Under the pieces are notes generated by a model. That model saw only the letters and a program-made list of their open reading frames with translations. It made no database searches and was not told the origin of the DNA. The position numbers and the translations under genes are program-made. From an uncultured Gammaproteobacteria bacterium (GTDB taxonomy: Bacteria; Patescibacteriota; Microgenomatia; UBA8517), in NCBI GenBank assembly GCA_964599625.1, contig CAZRGC010000004.1, forward strand, positions 75,705-139,704: a stretch of DNA of 64,000 bases, written 5' to 3'. Of this stretch, positions 1 to 34,799 are shown in pieces (within the stretch, counting starts at the first letter, position 1; every line of letters starts with the position of its first letter).

Positions 1-165
1 TTTTGAAGTTTTCCTTAAAAATATTTTTAGGCATATCGTTTTTAGCTTTGGCACCCTGAGCGAATGTCGAACGGGTTGTCGGCGGTTCTTTGGGCTAATT
101 CCCTCCCCGCACTCTTGATATATAAAACATAATAAACTAAGTGATAATTCAATCAAGTGGCAAAA

Positions 166-4101: not shown

Positions 4102-4839
4102 TTATTCAACAACCACAACTGGCGTACCTACACTTGCCCATCCAAAGAGCCACTCAGCATCCTTAACGCTGAAATTTACACACCCATGACTCATAGGAAC
4201 CCCAAAGTTGTCATGCCAGAACGTACCATGAAGGCCATAACCCTGAAAAAAATACATAACGTATGGAACGTCACGAATGTAGTAACCGGGCCCGCTCATG
4301 TCGTCAAATCTGTACTTGACGTATATTTGATACCGACCTGTAACTGTTGGATGCTCGGTGGTGCCAGTGGAAACAACAAACTGCCTGATAATTTTTCCGT
4401 TTTCCACGGCGTAGGCTTTTTGTTCCGACAAAATTACGTACACTTCCCTGCCATCCGTTTTGGGCGGCCAAGGTGGAATTGTCAGAATTTGGCCTTGGTA
4501 GACAAGGTCGGGATTTCCCAGATTGTTTTGATCAGCCAGGTATCCCCATGGAATCCCAAATCGATCGGCAATTGCAATCACAGTGTCTCCTTCTTTTACC
4601 TCGTATTCAGCAGGGAAAGTTGGAGTTGGACTAGGCGTCGGCGTGACCACTCTGGGTGTATTTGTAGGGACAAGTGTTTTGGTGGTTGTCGCAGTTGGAA
4701 CTAAAGTTCTTGTTGGCGATGCTGTCACCGTGACCTCTATTGGTACAAAGGCAGCGGTTTGTGGCAAAAGGCACATCAAGAGAACCAAAAGAACCGCATA
4801 TAGAATTCTTTTCACTGCAAACCTCGTGTGAACGTACAA
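4102..4839 (-). CDS. L,D-transpeptidase (YkuD family) with LysM domain and Thr/Pro-rich linker
   Basis: LysM-like EGDTVIAIADRFGIPWGYLADQNNL..., catalytic HGTFWHDNFGVPMSHGCVNF (His...Cys YkuD motif) and an N-terminal TM/signal. Confidence 0.85.
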   Translation of the reverse strand: MYVHTRFAVKRILYAVLLVLLMCLLPQTAAFVPIEVTVTASPTRTLVPTATTTKTLVPTNTPRVVTPTPSPTPTFPAEYEVKEGDTVIAIADRFGIPWGYLADQNNLGNPDLVYQGQILTIPPWPPKTDGREVYVILSEQKAYAVENGKIIRQFVVSTGTTEHPTVTGRYQIYVKYRFDDMSGPGYYIRDVPYVMYFFQGYGLHGTFWHDNFGVPMSHGCVNFSVKDAEWLFGWASVGTPVVVVE

Positions 4840-8333: not shown

Positions 8334-8444
8334 GCCTGTAAATAAAAATAAAGGCTATTTAAGCCCAAAATGATTGTAATGTGGGAATACTGAATACGCA
8401 AGCACTTAAAGAAGTCGAACTGTCGGGGTTTTTGGTGGTAGTGC

Positions 8445-8511
8445 GGGTCGGACAGGTTTCTAAATCTAGACAAATATGGTTAATTTGTTTTCGACTGAAC
8501 CTGCCGACCCG
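8445..8511. promoter_or_regulatory. long imperfect hairpin (13-bp stem GGGTCGGACAGGTT / AACCTGCCGACCCG, ~40-nt loop) inside a 517-bp GC-richer intergenic region upstream of gyrA
   Basis: Inverted repeat seen directly at 8445-8458 and 8498-8511. The region 8334-8850 has no convincing CDS. Confidence 0.4.
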
Positions 8512-8850
8512 ACTTTTAAGAATGTGGGTTGACCAGTACCCGAATATATCCTCAGCCGATGCTTTGGATGGCTTTGAGTCTGCGCAGACATCAAAGTCCT
8601 TTGGTGCGGGTCCAACCGTGATATACAAGGAGAATGGCGCTGGGATATGTCCCGTTTTCCAATTTCCTCTGCTATTCCCAAATGTAGGAACGCAATCACA
8701 GTCCGCTATTAAATGTTCGGGGCATGCCTCCCGTAACACCGAGGTAGAGTTTTGAACCTCTTCCAGCCAAACAAACAGCTAGGATACGAGTATTATAACA
8801 GATTATAGGACAATGTCAATATTATAGGGCCGGCCCCTTAAGCCCCGAAT

Positions 8851-9438
8851 TTATTTGAGAGGTTTGGCTTTGATTACTGCGCGGGTGGAGTCAAAAAGCC
8901 CCCAGCAGGTGTAAATTGTCAGTTCTTCTTTGTTGGTTGGTGCAACCAGGTCCACCCTGTCTGGTGGTACAAAGTCTTTCCAATAAGCTTCATAGGCATG
9001 CACTGTCCCGTCTGCTGTCTTTATGAATATTTTTTGACCCAAAGACAGATATGGCAGGTTTCCGAAGAGCACCTTTTTGTTGTGTCCGTATATAACAGTG
9101 TTGCCACCTGCTCCAGGGCGTGCTGAGGAGGCCAGGAAAGTGGGTTTGTCGTAGGATATAGTCCATACTCCGTTTTTGATCTCCCCTGTTCCCAGTGGCA
9201 AATCAATGCCTACGGAGGGAATTGTCACTTGCACAGGCATCTCTCCTTTGATAGTGGTAGCTTCGGGTGGCTTGGTAAAAGAAAGCACACGTACACGATA
9301 GTAGTTAACTCCACCAAAAACAAAGAGAATGACGCCGAGGATTAAAACAATAAGAGGATTTCTAAGTTTTTGGAACTTACTTAGATAACTTGAGGGCTTT
9401 TTTGATTTCTTTAACGCCTTTGGCGATGAATGTACCAC
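8851..9438 (-). CDS. sortase-family transpeptidase (membrane-anchored)
   Basis: N-terminal TM, catalytic VIYGHN (His), TIYTCWG (TLxTC Cys) and a downstream Arg (STRAVIKA). It overlaps the upstream substrate gene by 62 nt, so the true start may be later. Confidence 0.75.
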   Translation of the reverse strand: MVHSSPKALKKSKKPSSYLSKFQKLRNPLIVLILGVILFVFGGVNYYRVRVLSFTKPPEATTIKGEMPVQVTIPSVGIDLPLGTGEIKNGVWTISYDKPTFLASSARPGAGGNTVIYGHNKKVLFGNLPYLSLGQKIFIKTADGTVHAYEAYWKDFVPPDRVDLVAPTNKEELTIYTCWGLFDSTRAVIKAKPLK

Positions 9439-10549
9439 CCAAAGACATTATAGCCATATAGAAGTTTTCGGCAAAGTTTCCAGTACCTGCCATTGTTGAC
9501 GCACCAAGTACGTCTCCTCCGCCACCTATGCCAAGTACCTGGGGATTACCCGGGTCCGAAGGAGGTCCACCGAGTTCGTATTGCAAACAATTTACGCCGT
9601 CGTTGTCAAAATGATATGTGTCTGGCAAAGATGTTTGAATTCCTTCCAAATTGAGACATACGTCTCCGTTAGGTGTTGCTGTTGCAATCGGAGTAGAACT
9701 TTCCTGAGGTGTGGATGTAGCCTCTGGTGTGCTTGTGCTTTCGGGTGTAGATGTTGCAATAGGCGTTTCTGTGGCAACAGGTGTAGCTGTCGGACTAGGT
9801 GTCGCAGAAGGTGTAGCTGTCGCAGTTGGGCTAGGTGTTGCCGAAGGCGTTGCACTTGGTGTTGGTGTAGCTGTCGGACTAGGTGTTGATACGAGATTGC
9901 ACTGGTTATTCCAGATAGCCTGACCTGCGGCATCCCAATTTCTTCCGTCAGTATCCCATGATCCGGGAGGGATAATATCTTCACCATTTTGGTGCCCGCT
10001 TCTGTTGTGGTCGGAATTTCCATTACCATCAACTGCATCGTCATCCACTGTGATTTGGGTATAAGGGTTACTGTTACTGCCTGTTGCGTGACAAATAGTC
10101 ACAGAAATATGCTGAGGTGTGGGGCTTGGTGTAGGTGTGGCACATGCTTTGGAAACAGTTACCATAACATCTTCAATTTGGTTACCGGTCGGGTTGTAGT
10201 TAGAAATATTTCCTGATCCTGTAACATCCCAACCGCTTGTATTGTTGTTTGCCACTTCAAGATACCAATTGGTAACACTCCATCCGTTATTTCCTTGAAT
10301 ACTTATTTTGTAGTAGCCGTCGTTGCTACTACCCTGATAGTTTTGGTAGTCTGTGAAGTCGATTGAAACTTTGTCGTCGCTAAAATCACCCTGATTGTCT
10401 GATCTGGAATAATCAAAAGTTCCACAAGTTGGAGGGGTTTGTGTTGCACCAACATTGGTTGTTGCCATGCTGAGTGTAAAAAAGGAAGTAACCACCATAG
10501 AGGCGGTGAGGGCTAAAACTGACGCTTTTCCTGCGGTTTTCTTTGACAT
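9377..10549 (-). CDS. secreted surface protein with Thr/Pro/Ser-rich linker and tripartite C-terminal sorting signal (putative sortase substrate)
   Basis: Signal/TM at the N-terminus, ~80-aa (P/S/T/A) repeat linker, conserved module DVCLNLEGIQTSLPDTYHFDNDGVNCLQYELGGP, then GGGGDVLGASTMAGTGN + hydrophobic stretch + KGVKEIKKALKLSK tail. Confidence 0.7.
   Translation of the reverse strand: MSKKTAGKASVLALTASMVVTSFFTLSMATTNVGATQTPPTCGTFDYSRSDNQGDFSDDKVSIDFTDYQNYQGSSNDGYYKISIQGNNGWSVTNWYLEVANNNTSGWDVTGSGNISNYNPTGNQIEDVMVTVSKACATPTPSPTPQHISVTICHATGSNSNPYTQITVDDDAVDGNGNSDHNRSGHQNGEDIIPPGSWDTDGRNWDAAGQAIWNNQCNLVSTPSPTATPTPSATPSATPSPTATATPSATPSPTATPVATETPIATSTPESTSTPEATSTPQESSTPIATATPNGDVCLNLEGIQTSLPDTYHFDNDGVNCLQYELGGPPSDPGNPQVLGIGGGGDVLGASTMAGTGNFAENFYMAIMSLGGTFIAKGVKEIKKALKLSK
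9690..9900 (-). repeat. coding tandem repeats (GGTGTAGCTGTCG-type units) encoding the PSATPSPTAT linker
   Basis: Repeated gtgtagctgtcgcag/gtaggtgttgc units are visible in the sequence. The antisense frames give spurious Cys/Arg and GVAVG ORFs. Confidence 0.6.
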
Positions 10550-10599
10550 AAATTAACTATGGGCGGAATTGTACACCCTATATTTTTAATTGTCAAATA

Positions 10600-11097
10600 C
10601 TATGAGATTTTAGTTGCAACTATTACAAATCTTTTTGTGTCGAAAACACCGCTACAAGTGTAAATAACTATTTTATTATCGGTGTTTTGATTTACAACGT
10701 CATAACTTTTTGGGTCAATTTCCTGAGTAAAATCCACCACATATTTTTTGACCGAATCCTTGTTGCGTATTTCAACAACCATCCCCGGTTTTACATTAAC
10801 CAAATTTCCCAAAATGCTATTCCAATTGTGGCCGTAGATTACGTTTTGGTGGATTGATGCTCCCCGCGAGTCAGGTTGCCATTCTCCGTTTTTTTGCACT
10901 GCAGGGTATATGTTTGTCAGGATTCCCACTTTGTCTATTGCCAGGACATAATCATGATTTGGTTTTGGTGTTTCGTTTTTATTGGTCGCAAGAATTTCTG
11001 TTACAACAACAGGAGTTTTTGACTCTTTTTGATAAAAAGAAAAAAGGGACAAACACAGAAGTGTTATGCCGAGAAGTTTCAGAAGCTTATTCAACAT
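10600..11097 (-). CDS. sortase-family transpeptidase (membrane-anchored), paralog of 8851..9438
   Basis: N-terminal TM, VIYGHN, IVIYTCSG and FDTKRFVIVA motifs. It overlaps the upstream substrate gene by 11 nt. Confidence 0.75.
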   Translation of the reverse strand: MLNKLLKLLGITLLCLSLFSFYQKESKTPVVVTEILATNKNETPKPNHDYVLAIDKVGILTNIYPAVQKNGEWQPDSRGASIHQNVIYGHNWNSILGNLVNVKPGMVVEIRNKDSVKKYVVDFTQEIDPKSYDVVNQNTDNKIVIYTCSGVFDTKRFVIVATKIS

Positions 11098-11767
11098 TTT
11101 TTCGGGACTTATCGACCATCATGGTTATTGCCAATATTAGGGAACCAAGTCCTCCAAATGCCAACATTTTTGAGGTTGTTCCTGTGGTTGCCAGTCCAAG
11201 TACTTGTCCTCCTCCGCCTGTTCCGGTTGATTTTCCGGGGCCTCCGTATTCGTACTTAAGACAATTTATTCCGTCGTTATCAAAATGGTATTCATTTGGG
11301 AGCGATGTCTGCACTCCATCAATATTTGGACAAACATCATTGGTTCCGGGGTTGCATGAATAGTTAGCGTTTTTGGCCATGTACGCTGTATCTTCCAACC
11401 CCCACACTGCACCAGTGGGAACATAAATCCAACCCTGAGCCTTGAGTTCACCAAGTTGTTCCTCGTCCAAAGAAGAAATTTTCCACCAATTGGTTTGTAT
11501 TCCCGACCCGTTTTCGGAACAGAAGCACTGAACCAAAGTAGTTTCGCTAATCCTGAATACTTTGTCACTTCCTGTATAAGTTCCGCTGTCCCCTACTATT
11601 CCATGGGTCCCGGACGGATAGTTGGCGACAACAGTTCCTTGGGCACTTACACAAGCGGGGAAGTTTGGAGCATCAACTGCCAAAATTGGAGAAACCACAA
11701 AAAGAAACATGGGCAATAAAAACAGCAGTATTTTCGAAATTTTGTACATTTGTGTTGGGGCAAGCAC
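11087..11767 (-). CDS. secreted surface protein with LAxTG-like C-terminal sorting signal (putative sortase substrate), paralog of 9377..10549
   Basis: Signal peptide, shared module DVCPNIDGVQTSLPNEYHFDNDGINCLKYEYGGPG, then GGGGQVLGLATTGTTSK + hydrophobic LAFGGLGSLILAITMMV + DKSRKNVE tail. LATTG fits the class-E LAxTG pattern. Confidence 0.7.
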   Translation of the reverse strand: MLAPTQMYKISKILLFLLPMFLFVVSPILAVDAPNFPACVSAQGTVVANYPSGTHGIVGDSGTYTGSDKVFRISETTLVQCFCSENGSGIQTNWWKISSLDEEQLGELKAQGWIYVPTGAVWGLEDTAYMAKNANYSCNPGTNDVCPNIDGVQTSLPNEYHFDNDGINCLKYEYGGPGKSTGTGGGGQVLGLATTGTTSKMLAFGGLGSLILAITMMVDKSRKNVE

Positions 11768-11836
11768 AAACCTGAGCAGTTATGGGATTTTACAGTTGAT
11801 ATGTTCTGATGTCAACTGATATGGTTTGTTGAAGAA

Positions 11837-13117
11837 TTAGTTAAAAAGTGAATAGAAAAACTTTTGAATTTTGAAGAAAAAACCTTCGTTTCTGCTTTTT
11901 AGTATTACTACCACCTCCTTCCCTTCTTGGTTATTTGTTATACCAGTAGAATAAAAGCCTATGGCGTTTACGTTGGCCTTTACCGAGTCGCCTTCGTACG
12001 GCAAACTGAATCTGCCAAAGGCATCTGTTTTTGTGGAACTAAATGCGCTTAAAACTTCTACATCCTTTAGCGGTAATCCTGTTTGGGTTTTTACCATTCC
12101 ACTGAGGGCTTTTGGTTTATAAAAATGCTTAATTACTTCTGTAACCAATCTTGGCGTGCCATCGTCGTCCCAGAGTTTTGTTGAGCCGCCGAATCCGGTC
12201 CAGTAGTTAACCCCTATCAAGTTTCTGTTTTTTGAAAGCAAATCAAATGCACTTCTCACCCAGTTGGCTTGCTCATCTTGGGTCATGTCGCCATGAAGAT
12301 CTGGTATGGGGGCTCCAAACTCACCCACTACAATTTTCCCACCCGACCTTTCGGCTAGAGTGTTTATGTCATTATTCATTTTTTCGTAACTGGCTACATA
12401 GTGGTCTATAACAACAACTCCACCCAAAGCAGCAGTTGTTTCTTTGTTCATAATGAGGTTTGCAACGTCATAGTTCATTGGGAAGTAGTTGGTTTCCACA
12501 TTTTTATCAATCTGCCTAAAGGCCAATCTTCCAATCTGGTATTCATCAATCAAAAATTGTCTGAAGCCTTGTGTATCCCCTGTATGTCTTGGGTCGCCAG
12601 GCCCACCGTTTTCGCATTCTGTGCAGCTTGTGAATATGTCATCGTCTTCAAACAAATCTCCGTTGTCCACAATGAACTCTTTGAGCAGTCTTTTGTGTTC
12701 TTCCCTGCCAATCCGCTCAAATTCAAACCACTTTTCCCACCCCGAAAAATTTCCCCTGAACCAAATCTTTAGCCCATACTTTCGGGAAACATCAACCCAG
12801 CGTTTGAGGTACGGAATAAACTTTTTGTCATAAGGTGTCCCCAGGGCAATGTGTGTGACGCCTGTTTCTGCAATCTTTTTTACTTGGTCTTCGATTGTTT
12901 TGTCATAAGAGGAATCATTCAGATATTGTCCTGCGTGATCTCTTGAGTATTTAACGGTATCTATGGCTTGCATTTGCCAGAAAGAGGTTTTTGGAGAATT
13001 TTGGTTTGTGTCTGTGTTCTTTTTGGTTTTGGTAACTGCGAAAAGTCCCAGCACTAAAACAATTAAAGCCACAAAAAAAAGCGATTTATTTTTTTTCAAC
13101 ACAGCAGAATTATACAT
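11837..13117 (-). CDS. membrane-anchored (beta/alpha)8 glycoside hydrolase, GH5-like, with C-terminal carboxypeptidase-regulatory-like domain
   Basis: N-terminal TM, VVGEFGAP (GH5-type nucleophile context), a TECENGG acid/base-like region, and a C-terminal GLPLKDVEV...TDAFGRFSL CarboxypepD_reg-like pattern. Confidence 0.5.
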   Translation of the reverse strand: MYNSAVLKKNKSLFFVALIVLVLGLFAVTKTKKNTDTNQNSPKTSFWQMQAIDTVKYSRDHAGQYLNDSSYDKTIEDQVKKIAETGVTHIALGTPYDKKFIPYLKRWVDVSRKYGLKIWFRGNFSGWEKWFEFERIGREEHKRLLKEFIVDNGDLFEDDDIFTSCTECENGGPGDPRHTGDTQGFRQFLIDEYQIGRLAFRQIDKNVETNYFPMNYDVANLIMNKETTAALGGVVVIDHYVASYEKMNNDINTLAERSGGKIVVGEFGAPIPDLHGDMTQDEQANWVRSAFDLLSKNRNLIGVNYWTGFGGSTKLWDDDGTPRLVTEVIKHFYKPKALSGMVKTQTGLPLKDVEVLSAFSSTKTDAFGRFSLPYEGDSVKANVNAIGFYSTGITNNQEGKEVVVILKSRNEGFFFKIQKFFYSLFN

Positions 13118-13120
13118 CCT

Positions 13121-14782
13121 TTACTTGTTTATTAGCCCTTTGATTGGTTCTGTTTGAAGCTCCGGCAAGTATTGGTCATCCAGTTGGTATATGTCTGCAA
13201 ACGGATAACTGTCTACAAGTTTGTATTTTTTGAAACCTTCCGTTTTGCTTACACCTTTATATACAAGGTCCGCGTTGTCGTAAGTTCTCATCACAATCCA
13301 GCGCGCCCACCTGTCAGGAGAAGCCAAGGCATCTTCCCAATACTTCCCAGTACCTTCATGAATGAAACGGGACATTGGAAGATAGGATGAAAAGATAATT
13401 GCGTCGTGACTAGCTGCAGATATTAATATAAACCCTTTTTGGTCTTTTGCAGCGTTGTTCAAAAATCCGGACACTTCACTAACATTCTTTTGGCTGGACC
13501 CAACCCTTGCATCGTCAATTGTCACTGCGTCACCGTTTGCAAACGCAAAGAACATAACAAAAGCATAAAGTCCAATAAATACCCATCTTAAGTCTTTTAT
13601 CTTACCCACCAAATAACCCATGAATACGGCAAATGCAGGCATAAGCATTATTCCGTAGCGAACGTTGAACCAAGTATTTCCGGAAATTCCCTGGATAAAA
13701 AGAACCGAAAATCCGGCCACAAGGGATACTATATTAAAAGCCAATGGTGAGATTAGTGACAACGTTGCCAGTCTGGCCTCCCATTTAATATTTTTGTCCA
13801 GCCAGAGGGTTACCATTCCCAGAAAACCAAAAATAACAACAATCAAAATACAGTTATAAATAACCGAATACATATAAATCTGAGACGATAAAAGTATGTT
13901 TCCCTTTGTGGGGAGGTTCCCAGCAGCAAGCATTACTTGCTGTTGAGCATGTGCACTAAAAGGTCCGAGTGCAAAGTACAACGGGTCTTTAAAAATTATT
14001 AAATTCCAGCCAAACCACAGAACAATCCCAAAAGCACCCATGGTAAGGAACAGAACCGAAATACCTTCAGTTACTTTGTATCCTTTTTTGAATAGTGTAA
14101 TAAGTCCGACAATTCCTGCAGAAAACAAAAGCAAAAACCATCCGTCGTAGCGAACTAGTGTGGAAAGCATGACCCAAAACGAAGCTTTAACCAAATTTAC
14201 GATCTCATCACTTTTTGCCCAGTTAATAAGATAGTAACAGCCTGCTGTCATGGTAAACAAAAGAAGAGGCTCTGTCATTGCCGTGGATTGCAAGTACAAA
14301 ATATTCAAGTTTGCAGATGCAACCAATACTCCAAAAATCCTTCCCAAATAACCAACATTCAACTTTTCCAGAATTTTGTAAACTAATAGTCCTGTTCCCA
14401 CAAAAGACAACATGTTCCAAAACGCACCGGCAAATCCGCTGTGCCAGGCCCAATCGTTCCAGATAAGAGGAATCATGAGTACGTGATTTAATGGAAGCCA
14501 AACAGATCCTAATTGCGCAAGTCCGGGTTTAAGTCCCTCTACAACACGACGGCCTATATCCAAATGACTCCTGGCATCATTGTAATTAAGCCCCAATCCG
14601 TTTTGGAGATAGTGAATGAAATAGTATCCGCTTAGTAATGTTAGACATAGTCCAACAATCCAAAATAAATACTTCTTCACAATCTGTTCTATGTCTTCAA
14701 CTAACTTTGTATCAAAAGACACAGAAAGATTCGGTATTTTAGATGGTTTGTTTTTTGTTTGTTGGTTTTTATTTTTCTTCAT
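13121..14782 (-). CDS. polytopic GT-C fold glycosyltransferase (ArnT/PMT-like)
   Basis: >10 predicted TM helices, with an N-terminal loop DARSHLDIGRR...LGSVWLPLNHVL resembling the ArnT/PMT_2 first periplasmic loop. Confidence 0.6.
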   Translation of the reverse strand: MKKNKNQQTKNKPSKIPNLSVSFDTKLVEDIEQIVKKYLFWIVGLCLTLLSGYYFIHYLQNGLGLNYNDARSHLDIGRRVVEGLKPGLAQLGSVWLPLNHVLMIPLIWNDWAWHSGFAGAFWNMLSFVGTGLLVYKILEKLNVGYLGRIFGVLVASANLNILYLQSTAMTEPLLLFTMTAGCYYLINWAKSDEIVNLVKASFWVMLSTLVRYDGWFLLLFSAGIVGLITLFKKGYKVTEGISVLFLTMGAFGIVLWFGWNLIIFKDPLYFALGPFSAHAQQQVMLAAGNLPTKGNILLSSQIYMYSVIYNCILIVVIFGFLGMVTLWLDKNIKWEARLATLSLISPLAFNIVSLVAGFSVLFIQGISGNTWFNVRYGIMLMPAFAVFMGYLVGKIKDLRWVFIGLYAFVMFFAFANGDAVTIDDARVGSSQKNVSEVSGFLNNAAKDQKGFILISAASHDAIIFSSYLPMSRFIHEGTGKYWEDALASPDRWARWIVMRTYDNADLVYKGVSKTEGFKKYKLVDSYPFADIYQLDDQYLPELQTEPIKGLINK

Positions 14783-16262
14783 TTGGTTTTATTTTTATCC
14801 AGATCAATGATGTTCCGACGAGTGCAACGAGTCCATATATCGCCCAGTAGTATTGCCACCCGGTTACGAATTTGTTTGCATAGTTATTGAACACAAAAGA
14901 ATTGAGTTTGTTTTCGTTGAGCATCCTGATATTTATTCTGTAGTCATACTGCAATCCCAATCCTACCGCCTCAATTTTCGGTGGAATTACGTTTGTGGTA
15001 AGTGGTGCCAAAAGTGAAACTCCCAAGCTGTACAAAAATACCAGTGTAAAGATTAATTTTACAAAGAAGTTTTTATGTAGGTGGTTAAGGGCGAATCCGG
15101 CCAGTATACAAAGCTCGGGTAGTACTGCAATCATATATCTGCTTCCGAATGCCCATCCCCCATAAGGGTCACCAAACATTGTGTAAAGCGTCAAACAAGT
15201 TGCGGGAATAACCACCAATCCGATTTTTTCTTTCAACCCCAGTTTTTTGTATGCACCAAACAATGCGAACAAAGAAAGTAAAACGACAGGTGAATAAATT
15301 ACTATGCCGCGATCTTGGTTAACGGTGAAAGACTGAAAACCGTTTAACATGTTTCTTGTCTCCAGAGCCCCAACGCTTTCTCTTCCATCCTCGGGTGTTG
15401 CGTCTTCGACTGTTGTTTTAAGATCTTTAACTCTGGGAATGGAGTTACTCAAAACAGTCGGACTACCAAAGTGAATATAGTTGTAATACCCATACAGACC
15501 CATTAGACCCAAAAAGATAAACGGAGTTAATAAGTATTTCCATTTAAACGACAGACTGATCTTGTTTTTGATTTTTTCCAAGTTAAAACCCGAGAATGTA
15601 AAAATAATGGCAATCGGAAGGAATATAAACAGGTTTGGAAAATCAATATAAACGGCTACTGCATAAAGTACCCAAAAAATCATTGCGTCAAAGACTGAGT
15701 GATGTTTCTTGACTGTGGCAATATAAAGTCCCGAAAGAAGCAAAAATGCAGAAATCAAATGGGCATACAAAGTAACAGAATAACCCCATGCGTTTGTGGC
15801 AAAACCAAAAGCTAACCCTGCAAATATTGCAGTAGTCCAGGCCATGTTGAGACCTCTGGCGAATTTAATGATCATGAGGATGGTTAGGAAAGCAAATATG
15901 GTGGAAATCAGAAATGTGAATATTTGAGTAGCCCCAAGTTTCAAGCCCAGCAAGTATAGTGGTATAGCAAGAACGGATGCTCCTGGAGGAAAGAATGAGT
16001 AATAGTGTCCACCGATAAATCCGATGTCTGGAGTACCCATAGATGCATAATTATCTATTGCAAAAGTTCTATCGTTTACTAATGAAAGAATGATTGCGTA
16101 GCGGGATCGTTCTTGAGAAGTTTCAAAAGCAGATCCACTATTAAAAAGGGTGGTGTCGATTTGACTTGCTGTTGGCACATTCCAATTGCCCCTTAATGTA
16201 GATAAATACAAAAAGCAGCAATATATAGATATAAATATAAAAGTTAATATTTTATGTGTCAT
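14769..16262 (-). CDS. dolichyl-phosphate-mannose protein mannosyltransferase-like GT-C (PMT_2 family)
   Basis: ERSRYAIILSL...HYYSFFPPGASVLAIPLYLLG matches the PMT_2/ArnT DE-x-RYA...PP-L signature, followed by many TM helices. Confidence 0.7.
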   Translation of the reverse strand: MTHKILTFIFISIYCCFLYLSTLRGNWNVPTASQIDTTLFNSGSAFETSQERSRYAIILSLVNDRTFAIDNYASMGTPDIGFIGGHYYSFFPPGASVLAIPLYLLGLKLGATQIFTFLISTIFAFLTILMIIKFARGLNMAWTTAIFAGLAFGFATNAWGYSVTLYAHLISAFLLLSGLYIATVKKHHSVFDAMIFWVLYAVAVYIDFPNLFIFLPIAIIFTFSGFNLEKIKNKISLSFKWKYLLTPFIFLGLMGLYGYYNYIHFGSPTVLSNSIPRVKDLKTTVEDATPEDGRESVGALETRNMLNGFQSFTVNQDRGIVIYSPVVLLSLFALFGAYKKLGLKEKIGLVVIPATCLTLYTMFGDPYGGWAFGSRYMIAVLPELCILAGFALNHLHKNFFVKLIFTLVFLYSLGVSLLAPLTTNVIPPKIEAVGLGLQYDYRINIRMLNENKLNSFVFNNYANKFVTGWQYYWAIYGLVALVGTSLIWIKIKPNEEK

Positions 16263-17050
16263 TTGAAATAAGTAGCTAAGTAATGTTCTTTAATCTTTAA
16301 TAAACTCATGAAATATCTAGAAAAATTAAGTCCAGCAGGTGTCAAGAGCGCCTTAAAATTTTCTAGGGTAATTTTTCCTTCCATGGGGACCCTGTTTATT
16401 TTATGTTTGTCGATGGTCAACAGTTTTCCTCCGTCGATTGTTAAAGCATATCTATAGCCAGAATCTTGAACAAGATTGGTTATATCTTGATTATAGTATC
16501 CGTTCGGGTAAGCAAAATATGTAAAACTAGATTTAATTTCTCTTTGGAGCAGCTTGTAGTTTAACTTTTTCAAGCTTGTGTGTGTTTTGGTATGATATCC
16601 AAAACACCAACCTGCTTTTTTAAGTGTATAGATTTGTTTTTTAGTAAGCATTGGTTTGTTGTTATCAAGTACTTCTTTGTCTCTGTTTCTATAGTTACCT
16701 ATTATGAAAACTGTTGCAACTACACCATATCTTTTCATTATAGGAAAAGCATTGTTGTATATATCTTCGTAGCCATCGTCGAAAGTGATGCTGATTTGAG
16801 GTCTGCCTAACCGTGGCCCTTCTAAAATTTTATCAATTTTTACCACTCTGTAATTTTCGACAATATATTTTATTTGCTGTTCAAAATCAGCAACTGGTGT
16901 TGAAAAACGCCAGTCATCATCTGAGCATGAATGATAGCAAAGTATAACATCAGGCTTTTTTTTATTTTTGTAAATAAAGTTTGCTAAATTTAGCAAACTT
17001 AAGACGTTAAAATAAATTAACATTGCTATGTTTATTTTTTGGGTAATCAT
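16259..17050 (-). CDS. polysaccharide deacetylase (NodB/CE4 family)
   Basis: ISITFDDGYEDIYNNAFPIMKRYGVVATVF is the NodB motif 1/2 (TFDDG...). Confidence 0.75.
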   Translation of the reverse strand: MITQKINIAMLIYFNVLSLLNLANFIYKNKKKPDVILCYHSCSDDDWRFSTPVADFEQQIKYIVENYRVVKIDKILEGPRLGRPQISITFDDGYEDIYNNAFPIMKRYGVVATVFIIGNYRNRDKEVLDNNKPMLTKKQIYTLKKAGWCFGYHTKTHTSLKKLNYKLLQREIKSSFTYFAYPNGYYNQDITNLVQDSGYRYALTIDGGKLLTIDKHKINRVPMEGKITLENFKALLTPAGLNFSRYFMSLLKIKEHYLATYFK

Positions 17051-17799
17051 AATATTGACCTCTTAAACAATACGGCGCCTCTGTAAACAATTTTTGAAAG
17101 AAATATGTAACAAATATTCATTACAAAAAATAATGAAGTAATATATTGCAAGTTCATTGTGTGTGAGAAAAAATCTAGTATAAATATAATTATTAGCCGT
17201 AAAGCTATGTCGTCAAATATCCTTAATAAGGATTTAAAGTTATTAAGGCCCTTGCTTTCAACTTTAGACTTTTGATTCTCTTTTAAAGTTTCAAGCCATT
17301 TAATATCTAATATATAGCTGGTTGCTCCTACCATACCCAATATCAAATAAATATTGTTATTGCTTTGCGCGTATAGTCGAAGACTAAAGCTGATAATGAA
17401 TATGGAAGAAATTAGGGTGTGTAGAAAATTATCCAATATCTTTCCCCATACGAGGTTATTCTTGTAATATCGCGCGAGAGGCCCATCGACACAATCTAAG
17501 AATAAGGCAACCTCGTTTAATATCAATATTAATAAAAAGCTTAATTCTTTTCCATAAATTAACAACATACATCCTAAGAGTTGTAACAAGAACGATAGCA
17601 TAGTAACCATATTTGCTGAGATGCCTATTTTTGATAAGTGATAGGCTACTTCGGCTGCTTTCTCTCTATATAAAAAACGGTTTTCATATATGTCGCCACC
17701 CTTTTTAATATTTTTTGGTGAGTACCTATTAAAATCGTTTATAAATTTAGCTTTTGATGTTTTATTCATGTTTATTTGGTGCTCGAGGCTGTATACCAC
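17047..17799 (-). CDS. CDP-alcohol phosphatidyltransferase-family membrane protein
   Basis: DCVDGPLARYYKNNLVWGKILD fits D-x2-DG-x2-AR...G-x3-D. The protein has multiple TM helices. Confidence 0.55.
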   Translation of the reverse strand: MVYSLEHQINMNKTSKAKFINDFNRYSPKNIKKGGDIYENRFLYREKAAEVAYHLSKIGISANMVTMLSFLLQLLGCMLLIYGKELSFLLILILNEVALFLDCVDGPLARYYKNNLVWGKILDNFLHTLISSIFIISFSLRLYAQSNNNIYLILGMVGATSYILDIKWLETLKENQKSKVESKGLNNFKSLLRIFDDIALRLIIIFILDFFSHTMNLQYITSLFFVMNICYIFLSKIVYRGAVLFKRSIL

Positions 17800-18671
17800 T
17801 CGAGTTTGTATCTGCTAGAAATATTTTTATAAAAAGGAACTATGACTATGTTGATAACAATGGCCACTGATGTTTCTATTGGGTATTTTAAGAAGCTTTT
17901 GAATATGCTTTTTAGGTAAAACATGAATGGTCTTTTATACTCTTCTTCGACTATTTTTCCAAAGCGAGTTTTGTAGTTTATATTTATTGCTTGTGGGTTT
18001 GATCTGAAACATTGTTTAAGATAGTCTGGTAGACTTTTGGGTAATTTGTAAAATATCTTTGCCTCTTCGCAGTAAGAGAACTCCTTTTTATCTTTGGTCG
18101 CTGTAAAGTATATAAAATCGTCTTCGTTTAGTGCTTTTTCTGAAAAATCGATAGATTTTATATAGCGACGTCTAATTGCCATTCCGCCACCAGTAAAGCA
18201 AAATGGATTTTTGTAGTTTCTCAACTTCCTTGACTCATCAAAGACCAGAAACGTTGTGTATACAACTTTTTCAAAGAAAGTTACTGGTAAAAAAGGCCTG
18301 GTATTTGCACCGACAAAAGTAATTTTTTTATCATCTCTAAACTTCTTAATAATGTTTGAAATAACCTTGATGTTTCCTAATTTTTCGTCAGCATCGAAAA
18401 CAACCAGAATATCACCGCTGCATTTTTCAATAATTTTCTTTAAACCGCCAGACTTGCCTTGTCTTGTTTTGCTTTCAATAATTTTAATCTTTTTGTTTTT
18501 TAAATCTTTAATCTTCTCGACTGTTCTGTCAGTACAGTTATCACAGTGAATAATTATCTCTTTAAGAATGTAGTTCGAGGTTTTTTGATTAAGAATATCT
18601 TTGAGTATATTTTGAATATTCCCTTCTTCGTTGTAGGCACAGATGCCGACTGTCACTGTATTTTTTTTCAT
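17772..18671 (-). CDS. glycosyltransferase family 2
   Basis: VGICAYNEEGNIQNIL...DNCTDRT...FDADE (DxD) gives a GT-A fold signature. Confidence 0.8.
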   Translation of the reverse strand: MKKNTVTVGICAYNEEGNIQNILKDILNQKTSNYILKEIIIHCDNCTDRTVEKIKDLKNKKIKIIESKTRQGKSGGLKKIIEKCSGDILVVFDADEKLGNIKVISNIIKKFRDDKKITFVGANTRPFLPVTFFEKVVYTTFLVFDESRKLRNYKNPFCFTGGGMAIRRRYIKSIDFSEKALNEDDFIYFTATKDKKEFSYCEEAKIFYKLPKSLPDYLKQCFRSNPQAININYKTRFGKIVEEEYKRPFMFYLKSIFKSFLKYPIETSVAIVINIVIVPFYKNISSRYKLEWYTASSTK

Positions 18672-19816
18672 AATCCTGAAAAGAAATTGTTTATATTTTC
18701 AACAATTAAGTCTTGGTCATCTTTCGAAATCTGTGCAAACAAAGGAAGTCTTAGCAGAGTGTCGTTTATATCGTTTGTAACCGGAAAGTCTTCTTGTTTA
18801 TATCCCAAGTTTTGTCCTACGGGGCTTGAGTGAAGCGGTACGTAATGAGCGACTGCGCCAATTTCTCTGGATCTCAGAAAGTCCATAAGTGCGTTTCTTA
18901 CTTCCGCATTTGGTAAAAGAATAAAGAATATGTGTGCATTATGTTCCTGGCCCTCCGGGATTGTCGGAAGTGTTAGCTTTCCTTTTTGCTCCAAACTTTT
19001 GAGCTGATCGTGATAATAGTTGTATTTATCAACTCTGAGTCTGGTTATTTCTTCTTCCATTTCCAGTTGTGCATACAAGAAGGCTGCTAGCATGTCGCTC
19101 GGAAGATAACTGCCTCCTATTTCTACCCATGTATACTTATCTATAACACCTCTTAAAAATTTAGAACGATTAGTGCCTTTTTCTCTTAGAATTTCTGCTT
19201 TTTCTATAGTTTCGCTATCCGGGTTATTAATTAGCAAAGCTCCACCTTCTCCTGAAACAATATTTTTTGTACCGTGGAAACTCAAACATCCGAAGTCTCC
19301 GATTGTGCCCAGATATTTACCCTTGTACTTACTGCCTATTGCTTGTGCTGCATCCTCTATAACTTTAAGATTGTTCTTCTTGGCCAAATCCATTATTTTA
19401 TCCATGTCGCAGGAGACTCCGGCATAATGAACAACCATAATTGCCTTTGTCTTTGGGGTTATGGCTTTTTCAACTTCGATCGGATCTATGTTTATTGTTT
19501 TTGGATCAACATCCACAAACTTTATTACAACCCCTTTTTCCAAAAGGATTGCATTGGCCGTTGAGGAAAAAGTGAAGGATGGCGCAATAACCTCATCACC
19601 CTTTTTGAGATCCAGCAGTTTTACTGCCATCTCCAAAGCAGTTGTGCACGACGTGGTCAATAGCACTTTTGGGATTTTGTATTTTTCCTCGAACCACCTG
19701 TGGACAAGCTTGGTATATTTTCCGTCACCGGCTGTGTCTAAACCATTGTCGATAATATCTTTTATATACTCGATTTCTTTCCCTGTTATATATGGTTTGC
19801 TGAATGGTATTTTCAT
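18668..19816 (-). CDS. DegT/DnrJ/EryC1/StrS-family PLP-dependent sugar aminotransferase
   Basis: GKEIEYIKDIIDNG...TSCTTALEMA...SFHGTKNI (the Lys in the SFH-x-x-K context). 382 aa, a typical length. Confidence 0.85.
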   Translation of the reverse strand: MKIPFSKPYITGKEIEYIKDIIDNGLDTAGDGKYTKLVHRWFEEKYKIPKVLLTTSCTTALEMAVKLLDLKKGDEVIAPSFTFSSTANAILLEKGVVIKFVDVDPKTINIDPIEVEKAITPKTKAIMVVHYAGVSCDMDKIMDLAKKNNLKVIEDAAQAIGSKYKGKYLGTIGDFGCLSFHGTKNIVSGEGGALLINNPDSETIEKAEILREKGTNRSKFLRGVIDKYTWVEIGGSYLPSDMLAAFLYAQLEMEEEITRLRVDKYNYYHDQLKSLEQKGKLTLPTIPEGQEHNAHIFFILLPNAEVRNALMDFLRSREIGAVAHYVPLHSSPVGQNLGYKQEDFPVTNDINDTLLRLPLFAQISKDDQDLIVENINNFFSGL

Positions 19817-20910
19817 TTTTTATTTTCTTTTTTAATTATTTCCTCAAAAAAGTCAGACATCATTTTTGCCACATTTGGCCATTTGAATTTCTTGGCATAA
19901 TTCCTGGCAAAAATTTTCATGCGTGATAGCTTAGCCGATTTGCTTGCATTTAGCAATAATTGTCCGTATTCTCGGACATTAAAGGCTTTGGCTTGGAAAG
20001 AAAACTCCGGTTTTAACCACCCGAATTCGGGAATGTCAAAAGTTACTAATGGAAGACCTGCTGCAATTGCTTCAATTGAGAAAAGCGGCAGATTGTCATA
20101 TCTCGAAGGAAAAGCTACCAAATGAGCATTGGCCAGAAGATCCATCTTCCTCTCTCCTTTTACGGTTCCTACCATGGTAACTTTGTTTTCCAACTTGAGA
20201 TCGGATATTAATCTTTTGACCTTTTCTGCGTCCGGACCACCCCCGGCAATTATCAACGGATATTTTATTTTTTCGGAAACTGAACCATATGCTTTCAGGA
20301 GCAAATCTATTCCTTTTTGTGCAATATCTAATCTGCCCAAGTACAATATATATTTGTTTGACTTGTGTTTTATCTTAAAATATTCATCCCCTACCCCTTG
20401 TGGAATCATCTTTGACAACGCGGTTGAGTTGTATTTTCTGAACAGTTTTTCGTCGGTATCTATGTACGGCATAAAATATTTGTAAAGTTTGCAACCTAAT
20501 GCCTCAAACCAAACAAAAGGTAGGTGATATTTTTCTGAAAACTGTTTCCCGGCAAAAACTGTTGGGAGGGCCACTACTGGTATTTTTGTGAATAACGGTG
20601 AAAACAAACTTGATATTGGTGCAGTAAAACATTCAACAATAATATCTGCTTTAAGCCTTGCCACTGTAAACGGTAAAAGTAAGATGTAGAAAGCATTGTT
20701 TACTTGAATATTTCCGGTGTTTATGCCGATATGCTTGTATGTAATCCCGTTTTCGGTTCTGTCTTTATAACCAGGATATTTGCTACAAATAGATACAACT
20801 TTATGTCCCATTTTCGCCAACCTACCACCGACCTCGTATGTCGCACGGGCCTGCCCCGCAGCCAGTAGAGGATTTTTTATATCATCAAGATCCAAGAATA
20901 TTATTTTCAT
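19813..20910 (-). CDS. glycosyltransferase family 4 (GT-B)
   Basis: C-terminal GRLDIAQKGIDLL...FPSRYDNLPLFSIEAIAAGLPLV (E-x7-E-like GT4 motif). Confidence 0.75.
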   Translation of the reverse strand: MKIIFLDLDDIKNPLLAAGQARATYEVGGRLAKMGHKVVSICSKYPGYKDRTENGITYKHIGINTGNIQVNNAFYILLLPFTVARLKADIIVECFTAPISSLFSPLFTKIPVVALPTVFAGKQFSEKYHLPFVWFEALGCKLYKYFMPYIDTDEKLFRKYNSTALSKMIPQGVGDEYFKIKHKSNKYILYLGRLDIAQKGIDLLLKAYGSVSEKIKYPLIIAGGGPDAEKVKRLISDLKLENKVTMVGTVKGERKMDLLANAHLVAFPSRYDNLPLFSIEAIAAGLPLVTFDIPEFGWLKPEFSFQAKAFNVREYGQLLLNASKSAKLSRMKIFARNYAKKFKWPNVAKMMSDFFEEIIKKENKK

Positions 20911-21860
20911 ATTGTTTTCTTTATTCCATCTTCAAGACTTGTGTTTGCTGTCCAGCCAAAAACACTTTTTGCCAGGTCTGCGTTCAACACACTTCTATCC
21001 TGACCAACCCCGGAGTTCTTGTCGTATTCAAAATTAATCTTGAAATCAAAGTCTTTTGAGATCATGTTCAATATTTGATTAATGGTCGACTCTTTCCCGG
21101 TTGATACGTTGTAGATCATCGACTTTTGTATAGCCTTTGGGAAATCTGTGAAACTTATTTTTTCGCAAAGATCTATAAGATCGTCAACATAAATAAAATC
21201 TCTGGTTTGTTCTCCGTCGCCGTCGATTACGACTTTTTCACCTTCTTTTATTTGATTTATGAACTTATTTATTGCACCCACAATCTCGGACTTTCCACCA
21301 ACTCCATATACGTTTGCAAATCTCAGTACGATCCCATTCATGCCGATCGAGTTGTAGTACTGAATGTATTTCTCAATAGCCAGTTTTGAGCATGCATAAG
21401 GTGAGGAGGGACTTTCTTTTTGTGTCTCTACTTGCCCCCCATTTGGGACAAAGTCACCGTATACTCCTGAAGTAGAAAAGAAAACTAAGTTCTTTATCTT
21501 TAGTTTTTGCATGCTTTCCAAAAGGTTTAAAGAACCTATTACATTTTCACCTGCAAACTTCAAAGGGTTTTTGAGAGATTCTTTAACGCTCTTTAGTGCT
21601 GCAAGATGGAATACAACATCCGGCTTTTCTGTCTCTAATATCTTGGTAAAGTCTTTATCCATTATGCTGTTTTCATAAAACTTTGCTTCATTGTTCAGGT
21701 TGCTTTTAAAGCCGCTCGACAGGTTATCAACAACGACAACTCTGTTCCCTAGATCCAACATTCTTTGAACCAATTTGGGACCAATATAACCTGCTCCTCC
21801 TGTGATCAAAATTGTTTTTTTCATATTATTTTTGTTAGTTCCCCTGCACTGTTGTCCCAT
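20907..21860 (-). CDS. NAD-dependent epimerase/dehydratase (UDP-sugar 4-epimerase-like SDR)
   Basis: ILITGGAGYIGPKLV Rossmann motif, with YACSK (Y-x3-K catalytic). Confidence 0.85.
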   Translation of the reverse strand: MGQQCRGTNKNNMKKTILITGGAGYIGPKLVQRMLDLGNRVVVVDNLSSGFKSNLNNEAKFYENSIMDKDFTKILETEKPDVVFHLAALKSVKESLKNPLKFAGENVIGSLNLLESMQKLKIKNLVFFSTSGVYGDFVPNGGQVETQKESPSSPYACSKLAIEKYIQYYNSIGMNGIVLRFANVYGVGGKSEIVGAINKFINQIKEGEKVVIDGDGEQTRDFIYVDDLIDLCEKISFTDFPKAIQKSMIYNVSTGKESTINQILNMISKDFDFKINFEYDKNSGVGQDRSVLNADLAKSVFGWTANTSLEDGIKKTI

Positions 21861-31836: not shown

Positions 31837-33594
31837 TTGATACCCCCAATCAAATCATGCATAATGATTTTAATGCCTACTTCTGACGATTCTACAAAAA
31901 CATTGGCCGATATTTTGGTCGATCTTGGTGCGTTGGACAAAGCACGCGCAGATCAGGTAAAGCTTGCAGAGGTTCAAAGCGGAAACACTCAAGAAGACAT
32001 CTTGCGCAGGGGCAACATGGTATCTCAATCCAAAATAGTCCAGGCCAAGGCTCAACTTTACAATATCGCCTATATCGATCTAAGTAATATTCCTGTGGTT
32101 CCCGATGCACTTTCTGCACTTCAATCCGAAGTTGCGGAGAGGTTCAAAGTTTTCCCGGTCGATTTGGATAAGAAAGAAAAAGTACTCGGCCTTGCAATGG
32201 CGGACCCACTCGATCTTTCCACCATTGAATTTATCGAGCAAAAAACAGGTTACAGAGTTAAACCTTACGCATCAGAGGAAGATAAGATAATTGACTTTAT
32301 AAGAACCAGGTATACAACAACACTTACCCGTGAAGTGAACGCCGCATTAAAAGATGTTGGCCCTGGTGCCAACACTCCTGACCAAAGGTCGATTGAGGCG
32401 GCCAAAGGCGGATTTATAAGGGAGGAAAAAATCGCAGAAATAGTTTCCCAGATTTTGGACTTTGCTATCAAGTCTCGCGCGTCTGATATTCATATTGAAC
32501 CTCAGGAAAAAACCACAAGAGTTCGTTATCGTATAGACGGTATTTTGCAGGAAAAGTTAACAATACCCAAAGCTCTTCATGACTCTCTAGTTTCCAGAAT
32601 CAAAATTCTCAGCGGAATGAAAATAGACGAAAAAAGAATTCCTCAAGACGGTCGTTTTAATTTCAAAGGATCAGAAGAAGAGGTCGATCTTCGTATCAGT
32701 AGCCTTCCAACCACTTGGGGGGAGAAGATAGTCATGCGTCTTTTGAAAAAGACTGGTGGTGTTCCTACACTTTCAGACCTTGGCCTTAGAGGTAGAGGTC
32801 TGAAAAATCTTCAGGATTCAATTTTGCGTCCCCACGGAATCATTTTGATTTGCGGCCCTACAGGTTCGGGGAAAACTACAACTTTGTATTCTGTTATTTC
32901 TGCATTGAATACACCAAAAGTAAATATTGTTACTTTGGAGGACCCGGTGGAATACAAAATGGCGGGCGTAAATCAGGTGCAGATAAATCCAGCCGTTGGC
33001 CTTACATTTGCGGAAGGGCTCAAGTCGTTTTTGCGTCAGGACCCTAACATTATTTTGGTGGGAGAGATTCGTGACCGGGAAACTGCCGACTTGGCCATCC
33101 AGGCAGCACTAACGGGGCATTTGGTTTTTTCTACCCTTCATACAAACGATGCTTCAGGTGCTTTGCCCCGCCTTTTGGATATGGGTGCCGAGCCATATCT
33201 TTTGGCATCTTCCATGACGTGTATTGTAGCCCAAAGGGTTGTCCGCAAAATTCACGATGACTGCAAAGAAGGATATCCCGCAGACGGACAGTTGGTTGAC
33301 GAGATCAAACGCGAACTTGGGACACTTTGGCAACCAAAGGCAGCCCCACAATTTTTCAAGGGTAAGGGCGATGCCGATTGTGGAAATTCCGGTTACTACG
33401 GACGTGTAGGAATTTTTGAAGTGCTTCCTGTTACGGAGCGTGTCGGAAAGCTTATTTTGGAAAGGGCGTCTGCATCGGACATTGACAAGGCAGCCAAAGA
33501 AGAGGGTATGATTACATTGAAACAGGACGGATATTTGAAAGTTGTTGAAGGCACAACTACTGTGGAGGAAATATTGAGAGTGGCTCAAGAATAG
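31837..33594 (+). CDS. pilB: type IV pilus assembly ATPase PilB/GspE
   Basis: N-terminal T2SSE_N (LADILVDLGAL), Walker A ILICGPTGSGKTTTLYS, tetracysteine CKEGY...CGNSGYYGR. The start may be an internal Met, since the gap to divergent holB is only 33 bp. Confidence 0.92.
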   Translation: MIPPIKSCIMILMPTSDDSTKTLADILVDLGALDKARADQVKLAEVQSGNTQEDILRRGNMVSQSKIVQAKAQLYNIAYIDLSNIPVVPDALSALQSEVAERFKVFPVDLDKKEKVLGLAMADPLDLSTIEFIEQKTGYRVKPYASEEDKIIDFIRTRYTTTLTREVNAALKDVGPGANTPDQRSIEAAKGGFIREEKIAEIVSQILDFAIKSRASDIHIEPQEKTTRVRYRIDGILQEKLTIPKALHDSLVSRIKILSGMKIDEKRIPQDGRFNFKGSEEEVDLRISSLPTTWGEKIVMRLLKKTGGVPTLSDLGLRGRGLKNLQDSILRPHGIILICGPTGSGKTTTLYSVISALNTPKVNIVTLEDPVEYKMAGVNQVQINPAVGLTFAEGLKSFLRQDPNIILVGEIRDRETADLAIQAALTGHLVFSTLHTNDASGALPRLLDMGAEPYLLASSMTCIVAQRVVRKIHDDCKEGYPADGQLVDEIKRELGTLWQPKAAPQFFKGKGDADCGNSGYYGRVGIFEVLPVTERVGKLILERASASDIDKAAKEEGMITLKQDGYLKVVEGTTTVEEILRVAQE

Positions 33595-33601
33595 AAATAA
33601 G

Positions 33602-33636
33602 GTGGATAAAAGTTTGCTAAAGCAAACTGCGTCCAC
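33602..33636 (+). promoter_or_regulatory. nested perfect hairpin (AGTTTGCT-AA-AGCAAACT inside GTGGA...TCCAC) between pilB and pilT
   Basis: The palindrome is seen directly. No downstream T-run, so it is not a canonical intrinsic terminator. Confidence 0.4.
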
Positions 33637-34798: not shown

Positions 34799-34799
34799 T

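Follow-up and report, generated by a model that had tools for sequence, protein, structure and literature searches.

Gene pairs of sortases and their probable substrates

LAxTG is the signal of the class E sortases, described from Streptomyces (SrtE1/E2), Corynebacterium and Thermobifida, in which the beta6/beta7 loop carries an insertion of about 21 amino acids (aa) relative to class A (PMC5148588). The Gram-negative TIGR03784 (class GN) system is known for dedicated pairs of sortase and target genes (PMC3237569), and in oral streptococci the abpA-srtB locus has an adhesin gene followed by a sortase gene, the non-canonical signal of the adhesin being processed by the neighbouring sortase (PMC4974636). 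In the Candidate Phyla Radiation (CPR) a sortase family is present in more than half of the genomes and is near-ubiquitous in Microgenomates (Meheust et al. 2019, PMC6744442), a Microgenomates genome paper records a sortase (PMC7143001), and the "Pam" pili of the CPR, treated in a 2026 preprint, are of the donor-strand-exchange kind, with no sortase involvement described. Here we analyse a 64-kb stretch of DNA (the window) from an ultra-small CPR/Microgenomates bacterium, in which four minus-strand open reading frames (ORFs) form two substrate-then-sortase pairs. A literature search for CPR sortase substrates or their signal, for the cassette organisation and for MAxTG or MAGTG found none; it was thin on subscription journals and a prior description is possible. 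The preliminary description of this DNA held that such an arrangement is not described in bacteria of this kind. Sortases from these organisms have been published (PMC6744442) and dedicated pairs are known elsewhere (PMC3237569, PMC4974636), whereas the cassette organisation, the extended sorting signal and its Met-first variant appear undescribed.

The best explanation of the locus, as far as sequence comparison reaches, is that it holds two independent bicistronic cassettes, each made of a substrate gene and then the gene of a dedicated sortase, of a type conserved across Microgenomates. It is likely that each sortase cleaves the partner encoded upstream of it between the Thr and the Gly of [L/M]AxTG and joins it to the envelope, peptidoglycan being the most likely acceptor. 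The near-obligate pairing, the overlap of the genes, the synteny and the tripartite signal with its consensus are read directly from the compared sequences. The system is real and conserved, and given that both its enzyme family and its general logic have been described before, it is not new as a category. What sets it apart is an unclassified sortase clade, a VLG(AST)-[L/M]AxTG signal, a near-obligate pairing with dual-coding overlap and passengers of unmatched fold. An ORF check recovered the same four reading frames that had been drawn at the outset:

11087..11767, minus strand: substrate A, 226 aa as an ORF; Sec-type signal peptide, Trp/Cys-rich domain, Cys module, Gly-rich spacer, VLG-LATTG, anchor helix, basic tail
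10600..11097, minus strand: sortase 2, 165 aa; overlaps the substrate A stop by 11 nt
9377..10549, minus strand: substrate B, 390 aa; signal peptide, N-terminal domain, His/Cys middle domain, linker, Cys module, signal, anchor helix, Lys-rich tail
8851..9438, minus strand: sortase 1, 195 aa; basic N-tail, membrane helix (residues 28-52), catalytic barrel

In the window, sortase 1 and sortase 2 are the only matches to sortase hidden Markov models (HMMs), and substrates A and B are the only ORFs with a motif, helix and basic tail in succession. Cassettes resembling substrate A and sortase 2 are referred to below as A-type, and those resembling substrate B and sortase 1 as B-type.

Family, fold and class of the two enzymes

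Sortase 1 and sortase 2 are sortases, as they had been taken to be: both score above the gathering threshold of PF04203 (Pfam; peptidase C60), at 69.6 and 43.8 bits respectively with a cutoff of 26.6, and both belong to a family with an invariant His-Cys-Arg triad and the sortase fold. The VIYGHN and IYTC(W/S)G motifs are seen in both, and the two enzymes are paralogous (31% identity, E=1e-13). Alignment places their catalytic residues as follows:

9082-9084 (H119), 8905-8907 (C178) and 8881-8883 (R186), minus strand: catalytic residues of sortase 1
10828-10830 (H90), 10654-10656 (C148) and 10630-10632 (R156), minus strand: catalytic residues of sortase 2

These His, Cys and Arg residues are invariant in 75/75 unique cassette sortases from related loci, as are T177 and D183 of sortase 1, and the family profile aligns GHN, TC and R with the catalytic residues of B. 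anthracis SrtA (E=5e-11). The AlphaFold2 (AF2) model of sortase 1, the enzyme chosen for modelling, has a predicted local distance difference test score (pLDDT) of 78 and consists of the N-terminal helix and a beta-barrel. Comparison of this model to solved sortases with Foldseek gave E=1e-10 to 1e-8 for classes C, A, D and E; the top matches are class C enzymes, by a negligible margin over the others. With the NCBIfam class models (C, D, E, F, GN, SrtD) the scores range from 15 to 36 bits, the cutoffs being 140-166. The comparison with classes A-F foreseen in the preliminary description therefore confirms the family through PF04203 but yields no class, since no NCBIfam cutoff is reached and Foldseek does not discriminate.

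Class E is the most obvious candidate. Like its members, the present enzymes are associated with Ala at position P3 of the signal (LAxTG) and have an N-terminal membrane anchor with a cytoplasmic tail. An aromatic position some 18 residues ahead of the catalytic His is reminiscent of the class E specificity Tyr. In the sequence alignment the column that possibly matches this Tyr holds Tyr (47 of the 75 sortases), Phe (9), Trp (9) and His (8); sortase 1 has Phe there, and sortase 2 lacks the position. The family has profile matches to solved class A/D enzymes (E=5e-11 to 4e-10) that beat the match to T. fusca SrtE (E=3.5e-5), and the long beta6/beta7 insertion was not found, the segment measuring 15 residues in 73/75 sortases. 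The class E model NF033747 (cutoff 160) gives 24.9 bits for sortase 1 and no match for sortase 2, its best E-value among 23 family members being 4e-10. Class E enzymes are moreover housekeeping sortases that serve many unlinked substrates; in the present loci, by contrast, the sortase comes directly behind a substrate of its own, and neither the Met at P4 nor the VLG(AST) prefix of these cassettes is a class E feature. LAxTG, the cognate signal of that class, is tied to the cassette sortases by genomic association only, through LATTG in substrate A. A filing under class E was therefore rejected despite the LAxTG signal, on the grounds of the HMM score, the short beta6/beta7 segment and the non-discriminating Foldseek result; the epithet "class-E LAxTG-like", used at first for the LATTG motif, holds as to the LAxTG form of the signal and does not extend to the enzymes.

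The sorting signal

Both substrates were described from the start as ending in a motif, a hydrophobic helix and a basic tail. This architecture was borne out in both, at the extreme C-terminus and together with an N-terminal signal peptide:

11180..11194, minus strand: sorting pentapeptide LATTG of substrate A, residues 192-196, after QVLG
11090..11179, minus strand: substrate A anchor; TTSK, helix MLAFGGLGSLILAITMMV with G-x6-G, basic tail DKSRKNVE
9479..9493, minus strand: sorting pentapeptide MAGTG of substrate B, residues 353-357, after DVLGAST
9380..9478, minus strand: substrate B anchor; NFAE (acidic at +4), helix NFYMAIMSLGGTFIA with Gly at +14 and +21, basic tail KGVKEIKKALKLSK

The tripartite tail is present in 120/120 substrate A homologues. 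[LFI]AxTG occurs in 116 of them, with Ala at P3 in all 116; VLG precedes the signal in 98 of these and Asn or Asp follows it in 82. The T and the G of the motif are invariant in 59/59 aligned homologues, and the consensus of the A-type proteins is (Q/E/D)VLG-LAxTG. LATTG, read at first as LAxTG-like, conforms to it. The signal of substrate B had been misread as a degenerate LGASTMAG: the tail runs QVLG..DVLGAST-MAGTG, then anchor helix and Lys-rich tail, and the real signal, MAGTG, lies three residues downstream, in register with LATTG, and is a recurrent variant in relatives. These B-type relatives have VLGAST-[M/L]AxTG, most commonly MAGTG, then MASTG, MANTG, LASTG and LAETG, with some LPxTG, and "VLG[AIT]ST" often repeats as a pseudo-repeat upstream of the true motif. 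The tail of substrate B is conserved in orthologues that were retrieved via the sortase and not via the tail, in which the pentapeptide is MAGTG (L004, L005), MAKTG (L003), LASTG (L002) or MAGAG (L001). Met at P4 is found only with sortase-1-type cassettes, being present in 0/116 A-type signals.

A profile of the signal alone (42 positions, searched against 1.84 billion representatives) retrieved 158 proteins in at least 24 passenger clusters, every match lying at the extreme C-terminus and MAxTG being about as frequent as LAxTG; the limited sensitivity of this search makes the repertoire a lower bound. The anchor models TIGR01167 (NCBIfam) and PF00746 (Pfam) gave no match at E<=1 for either substrate.

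Two observations on the signal in single relatives may be added. In the closest relative, the substrate B orthologue (L001 8926-10059) has MAGAG for MAGTG, the scissile Thr being replaced by Ala, and such T->A or T->G changes recur independently; either Ala at P1 is accepted by the sortases or processing of these copies has ceased. Two very large surface proteins, L004 3463-8133 (1556 aa) and L012 76-1938 (620 aa), terminate in QVLG[AI]ST-(E/V)LP[GA]TG, in which the Pro is the canonical one. In each case a B-type cassette follows 1-2 kb downstream, and neither protein is accompanied by its own sortase; the QVLGxST prefix is used with LPxTG as well.

Pairing, overlap and history of the cassettes

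Pairing was assessed from both sides. On the substrate side, metagenome loci were found via the passenger-domain pattern G[IT]QTNWW[KN], and unique substrate A genes followed by 500 nt or more of sequence were kept; a sortase gene lies directly downstream on the same strand in 54/56 of them, with gaps of -83 to +80 nt, and one of the misses, L053, is a true pair masked by an over-extended ORF start. On the sortase side, an ORF with a signal-bearing tripartite tail lies directly upstream of 74/75 unique sortases. By these counts the one-sortase-per-substrate arrangement of the preliminary description is a conserved module and no accident.

The adjacency might nonetheless be incidental, the enzymes being general housekeeping sortases with many substrates of which the upstream genes are merely two. 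The occurrence of non-adjacent LPxTG/LAxTG proteins in related loci and of the signal on at least 24 different passenger clusters speaks for this possibility. Against it stand the pairing counts themselves, the conserved overlaps and the synteny, a correlation of sortase clade with signal subtype, and the presence within 2.9 kb of two sortases, each directly behind a different signal subtype; we consider it very improbable.

In the B-type cassette the two genes share DNA:

9377..9438, minus strand: out-of-frame overlap, 62 nt; codes for two basic tails, the C-terminal one of substrate B and the N-terminal cytoplasmic one of sortase 1

This overlap had been noted at the outset, and an independent public gene call has it too. 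It is forced, because after the GTG at 9438 the frame offers no other ATG, GTG or TTG before the predicted membrane helix has ended; sortase homologues share the basic N-terminal tail of sortase 1. The orthologues of sortase 1 (>=52% identity; L001-L005) always follow a protein ending in VLGAST-[ML]Ax[TA]G-SFxE..Y.AIM..G......G.K..KK, and in these five loci the pair overlaps by 50-62 nt out of frame and lies just upstream of gyrA. A-type cassettes stand alone in most loci; the two types adjoin only in the window and in L001, and L002 has a different second cassette. Since the cassette types are separate in other loci, what lies in the window is two old cassette families side by side and not a local duplication. 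To call the locus "tandem duplicated", as was done at first, is hence misleading: both families are separately conserved, the B-type syntenic at gyrA and the A-type alone elsewhere. A recent tandem duplication or gene conversion was rejected on the same ground and on the identities of the shared module (71% at the DNA level) and of the sortases (31%).

Comparison to the described two-gene systems shows likeness in organisation. Class GN (TIGR03784, PMC3237569) likewise has one sortase and one target in consecutive genes, and three loci of this kind (L019, L026, L027) are distant matches, with LAQTG/MAQTG-type tails directly upstream of the sortase. The GN target, however, is a large VWA/vault-like protein, whereas the present targets are small and of unrelated, unmatched folds, and the present host is a monoderm-like member of the CPR; the GN model TIGR03784 (cutoff 158) gives 35.5 and 14.5 bits for sortases 1 and 2, and the targets have no VWA domain. 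The abpA-srtB locus (PMC4974636) shares the order of adhesin then sortase and a non-canonical signal, but its enzyme is a class B sortase and its signal, LPKTS, has just three residues after it, without helix or basic tail. No homology of the present cassettes to that enzyme class or to its substrate was found.

The relatives bear the source names Woesebacteria, Roizmanbacteria, Daviesbacteria and Microgenomates. Some public metagenome-assembled genome records with such cassettes (L001, L007-L010, L012, L014, L015) are titled "uncultured Gammaproteobacteria" or "Pseudomonadales", and L006 "Vitreimonas sp."; as their gene content matches Microgenomates relatives, they are probably mislabelled bins.

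The passengers and the question of pilus assembly

The probable start of substrate A is the ATG at 11749, giving 220 aa as in the homologue P0001 and coinciding with the near-invariant Met of the homologue alignment. After its Sec-type signal peptide the protein has a conserved Trp/Cys-rich domain of about 110 aa, in which AF2 gives a pLDDT >90 over residues 30-140. C39, C81, C83, C138 and H55 are invariant in the 59 homologues, together with T195 and G196 of the signal. The domain has no match among solved structures, and no Ig/CnaB-like match; it is a small, disulfide-stabilised, Trp-rich module of unmatched fold, which most plausibly serves in binding or adhesion. Substrate B has a middle domain with His and Cys (ICHATGS...) and a Pro/Thr/Ser-rich linker of about 75 aa (residues 221-295). 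It has no Pfam or NCBIfam match, and its sequence matches in the PDB are confined to the low-complexity linker. The DNA of this linker (window 9670-9892) is made of imperfect 12/18/36-nt tandem repeats (families D1, D2) and is a likely site of length variation.

The substrates have one module in common:

11237..11338, minus strand: shared Cys module of substrate A, DVCPNIDGVQTSLPNEYHFDNDGINCLKYEYGGP, residues 144-177
9563..9664, minus strand: shared Cys module of substrate B, residues 296-329

The presence of this module (30 aa, two Cys) had been pointed out beforehand and is confirmed by 73% protein identity (E=1e-14) and 71% DNA identity over 101 nt. The accompanying claim that the substrates are clearly paralogous does not hold for the proteins as wholes, their common part being the 30-aa module and the C-terminal signal. 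The module also precedes the signal in several substrate homologues.

Sortases encoded beside their substrates are typical of pilus clusters, and it is conceivable that the present enzymes join copies of their partner into a covalent fibre or ladder, in the manner of the class C pilus sortases, or of SrtB, which builds AbpA ladders from a comparable two-gene locus (PMC4974636). Class C also supplies the top Foldseek matches, by the negligible margin mentioned above, its fold similarity being equal to that of the other classes. The features of a polymerising system are however wanting. The class C lid motif DP[FWY] is found in the first 110 residues of 0/75 cassette sortases, and the class C model NF033745 (cutoff 160) gives 29.1 and 17.1 bits. 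No invariant or near-invariant Lys that could act as the pilin-motif Lys exists among the 59 substrate A homologues, an Ig-like pilin fold was not matched, and each sortase has one substrate whereas a pilus cluster has two or three pilins. The window already holds a full type IV pilus/pseudopilus cluster (31837-42181, plus strand) with two T2SSE ATPases, a T2SSF platform protein, a prepilin peptidase A24 and about eight proteins with an N-terminal methylation motif. With no lid, no conserved Lys and no Ig-like fold, the pilus reading was rejected, and polymerisation of the partner appears quite improbable.

Anchor and sortase helices

Both anchor types contain two conserved Gly seven residues apart. 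In A-type anchors they stand at +12 and +19 after the motif (the helix of substrate A spans residues 198-223), and the B-type anchors retrieved via the sortase are also acidic at +4; because many B-type tails were retrieved by tail similarity, the figures for anchor conservation are partly biased, and the sortase-retrieved tails were relied on instead. The membrane helix of the sortases has small residues at the same spacing, position 35 being G/S/A in 71/75 and position 42 G/S/A/T in 64/75:

~9283-9357, minus strand: membrane helix of sortase 1; small-x6-small pair G35/G42
~11030-11080, minus strand: membrane helix of sortase 2

The matching small residues in anchor and sortase helices are consistent with helix-helix recognition, which may take place in the membrane. 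It is possible, albeit doubtful, that the cassettes represent a new CPR-centred class of sortases with a partly intramembrane specificity, in which the G-x6-G of an anchor packs on the small-x6-small face of its own sortase and the overlap couples the pair stoichiometrically.

Proposed mechanism and acceptor

We propose that the substrate would be exported by Sec via its N-terminal signal peptide and retained in the membrane through the C-terminal helix and the basic tail, where the membrane-anchored sortase, encoded immediately downstream and probably translationally coupled, would act on it. The catalytic Cys would attack the Thr-Gly bond of VLG-[L/M]AxTG, the acyl-enzyme would be resolved by a cell-envelope amine, most likely that of a peptidoglycan precursor, and the passenger would be left covalently displayed on a Gly-rich or Pro/Thr-rich stalk. 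From the sequences we infer cleavage between Thr and Gly, the identity of the acceptor, a one-to-one specificity (LAxTG with A-type, mostly MAxTG with sortase-1-type enzymes) and covalent surface display. The peptides GQVLGLATTGTTS and DVLGASTMAGTGNFAE are proposed as assay substrates for both sortases.

Peptidoglycan is implied by the gene for a LysM + YkuD L,D-transpeptidase (4102-4839) and by that for a polysaccharide deacetylase. The cassettes close a minus-strand cell-envelope glycan cluster of about 15 kb that lies directly upstream of them (window 11837-26389). It encodes a 1522-aa GT2+GT2+GT4 protein, an epimerase/dehydratase, a GT4 protein, a DegT aminotransferase, a GT2 protein, a CDP-alcohol phosphatidyltransferase and the polysaccharide deacetylase, as well as two large membrane proteins, of 497 and 553 aa, for which Pfam gave no match, and a protein of 426 aa whose C-terminus weakly resembles CarboxypepD_reg. 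In L001 these last three are in synteny with the cassette, and in L016 a related domain stands ahead of an A-type cassette. A link between this cluster and glycosylation of the Pro/Thr-rich stalk is possible.

The position of the cassettes at the 3' end of the glycan cluster, a neighbourhood common to L001, raises the alternative that the substrate is transferred to an acceptor other than peptidoglycan (a secondary cell-wall glycan, a lipid or an S-layer component) or released by hydrolysis. The CPR envelope is atypical, and the Ala, Gly or Ser found at P1 and P1' in some tails hints at a relaxed chemistry. To our knowledge, however, every characterised sortase uses a peptide amine as nucleophile; genes related to peptidoglycan are present, and in L002-L005 the glycan cluster is not beside the cassette. 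We regard such an acceptor, or release, as unlikely.

Several points weigh against cleavage and attachment to peptidoglycan by a dedicated enzyme. A minority of B-type tails have another residue in place of the scissile Thr, namely MAGAG (L001, P0284), MATAG (P0276), TAKAG (P0280) and MAKGG (P0245), and some A-type tails deviate too, with Thr replaced in LAFMG and LAKSG and Gly in LAGTS; the Thr replacements are the main internal evidence against uniform Thr-Gly cleavage. Sortase 2 has a 10-aa deletion relative to the family in the beta3/beta4 region, by which the substrate groove of other sortases is lined. Sortases and substrates do not correspond strictly one to one, since large LPxTG/LAxTG proteins without a sortase of their own exist (L004, L012, P0399, P0456, P0466), and there is one clear exception to the pairing, the A-type substrate of L056 (3-623), which has the signal LAGTS and no sortase in 1 kb downstream. 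The genome was viewed through the 64-kb window, so that its other substrates and sortases could not be counted. Finally, cleavage and attachment are deduced from sequence and model data. As to L056, its use as a signal-less and sortase-less natural control was considered and rejected, because a six-frame reading revealed the variant LAGTS signal.

Transcription signals and other elements in the window

One promoter-like site per cassette was found, each by its match to the consensus only:

11787..11815, minus strand: promoter-like site upstream of substrate A, TTGACA-17-TAAAAT, 11/12; consensus match only
10568..10596, minus strand: promoter-like site upstream of substrate B, TTGACA-17-TACAAT, 11/12; consensus match only

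The site at 11787..11815 suggests that cassette A is a transcription unit of its own. Between the stop of sortase 1 and the start of gyrA, about 430 nt of the minus strand (window 8345-8790) are without an ORF. This region has a perfect sigma70-type promoter, TTGACA-16-TGnTATAAT (12/12), at 8819-8792, a terminator-like hairpin with a T-run at 8366-8352 and a predicted RNA fold with z=-3.7; it gave no Rfam match at E<=1 and no tmRNA by ARAGORN. Promoter and sequence are kept in the closest relative, L001, and absent from L002-L005. The region is a candidate for an unannotated structured RNA. At the edge of the window (30-124, minus strand) a SAM riboswitch (RF00162) scores exactly at the gathering threshold of 44.4 bits (E=7e-7).

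Significance for the surface biology of the CPR

A considerable part of bacterial diversity belongs to the CPR/Patescibacteria. Many of them are attached to other cells, while their surface proteins are mostly annotated as "hypothetical". Since many CPR bacteria live in this way, surface proteins are central to their biology. VLG-[L/M]AxTG together with a partner gene offers a rule for predicting the covalently displayed surface proteome of the lineage, one that TIGR01167, PF00746 and the sortase class models miss, and the small, widespread passenger domain of unmatched fold is a candidate core component of the surface. The present enzymes are candidate sortases for signals with Ala at P3 or Met at P4 and could be of use as orthogonal ligation enzymes. 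If specificity does lie partly in the membrane, each cassette would be a self-contained orthogonal unit of surface display with a new recognition sequence, [L/M]AxTG.

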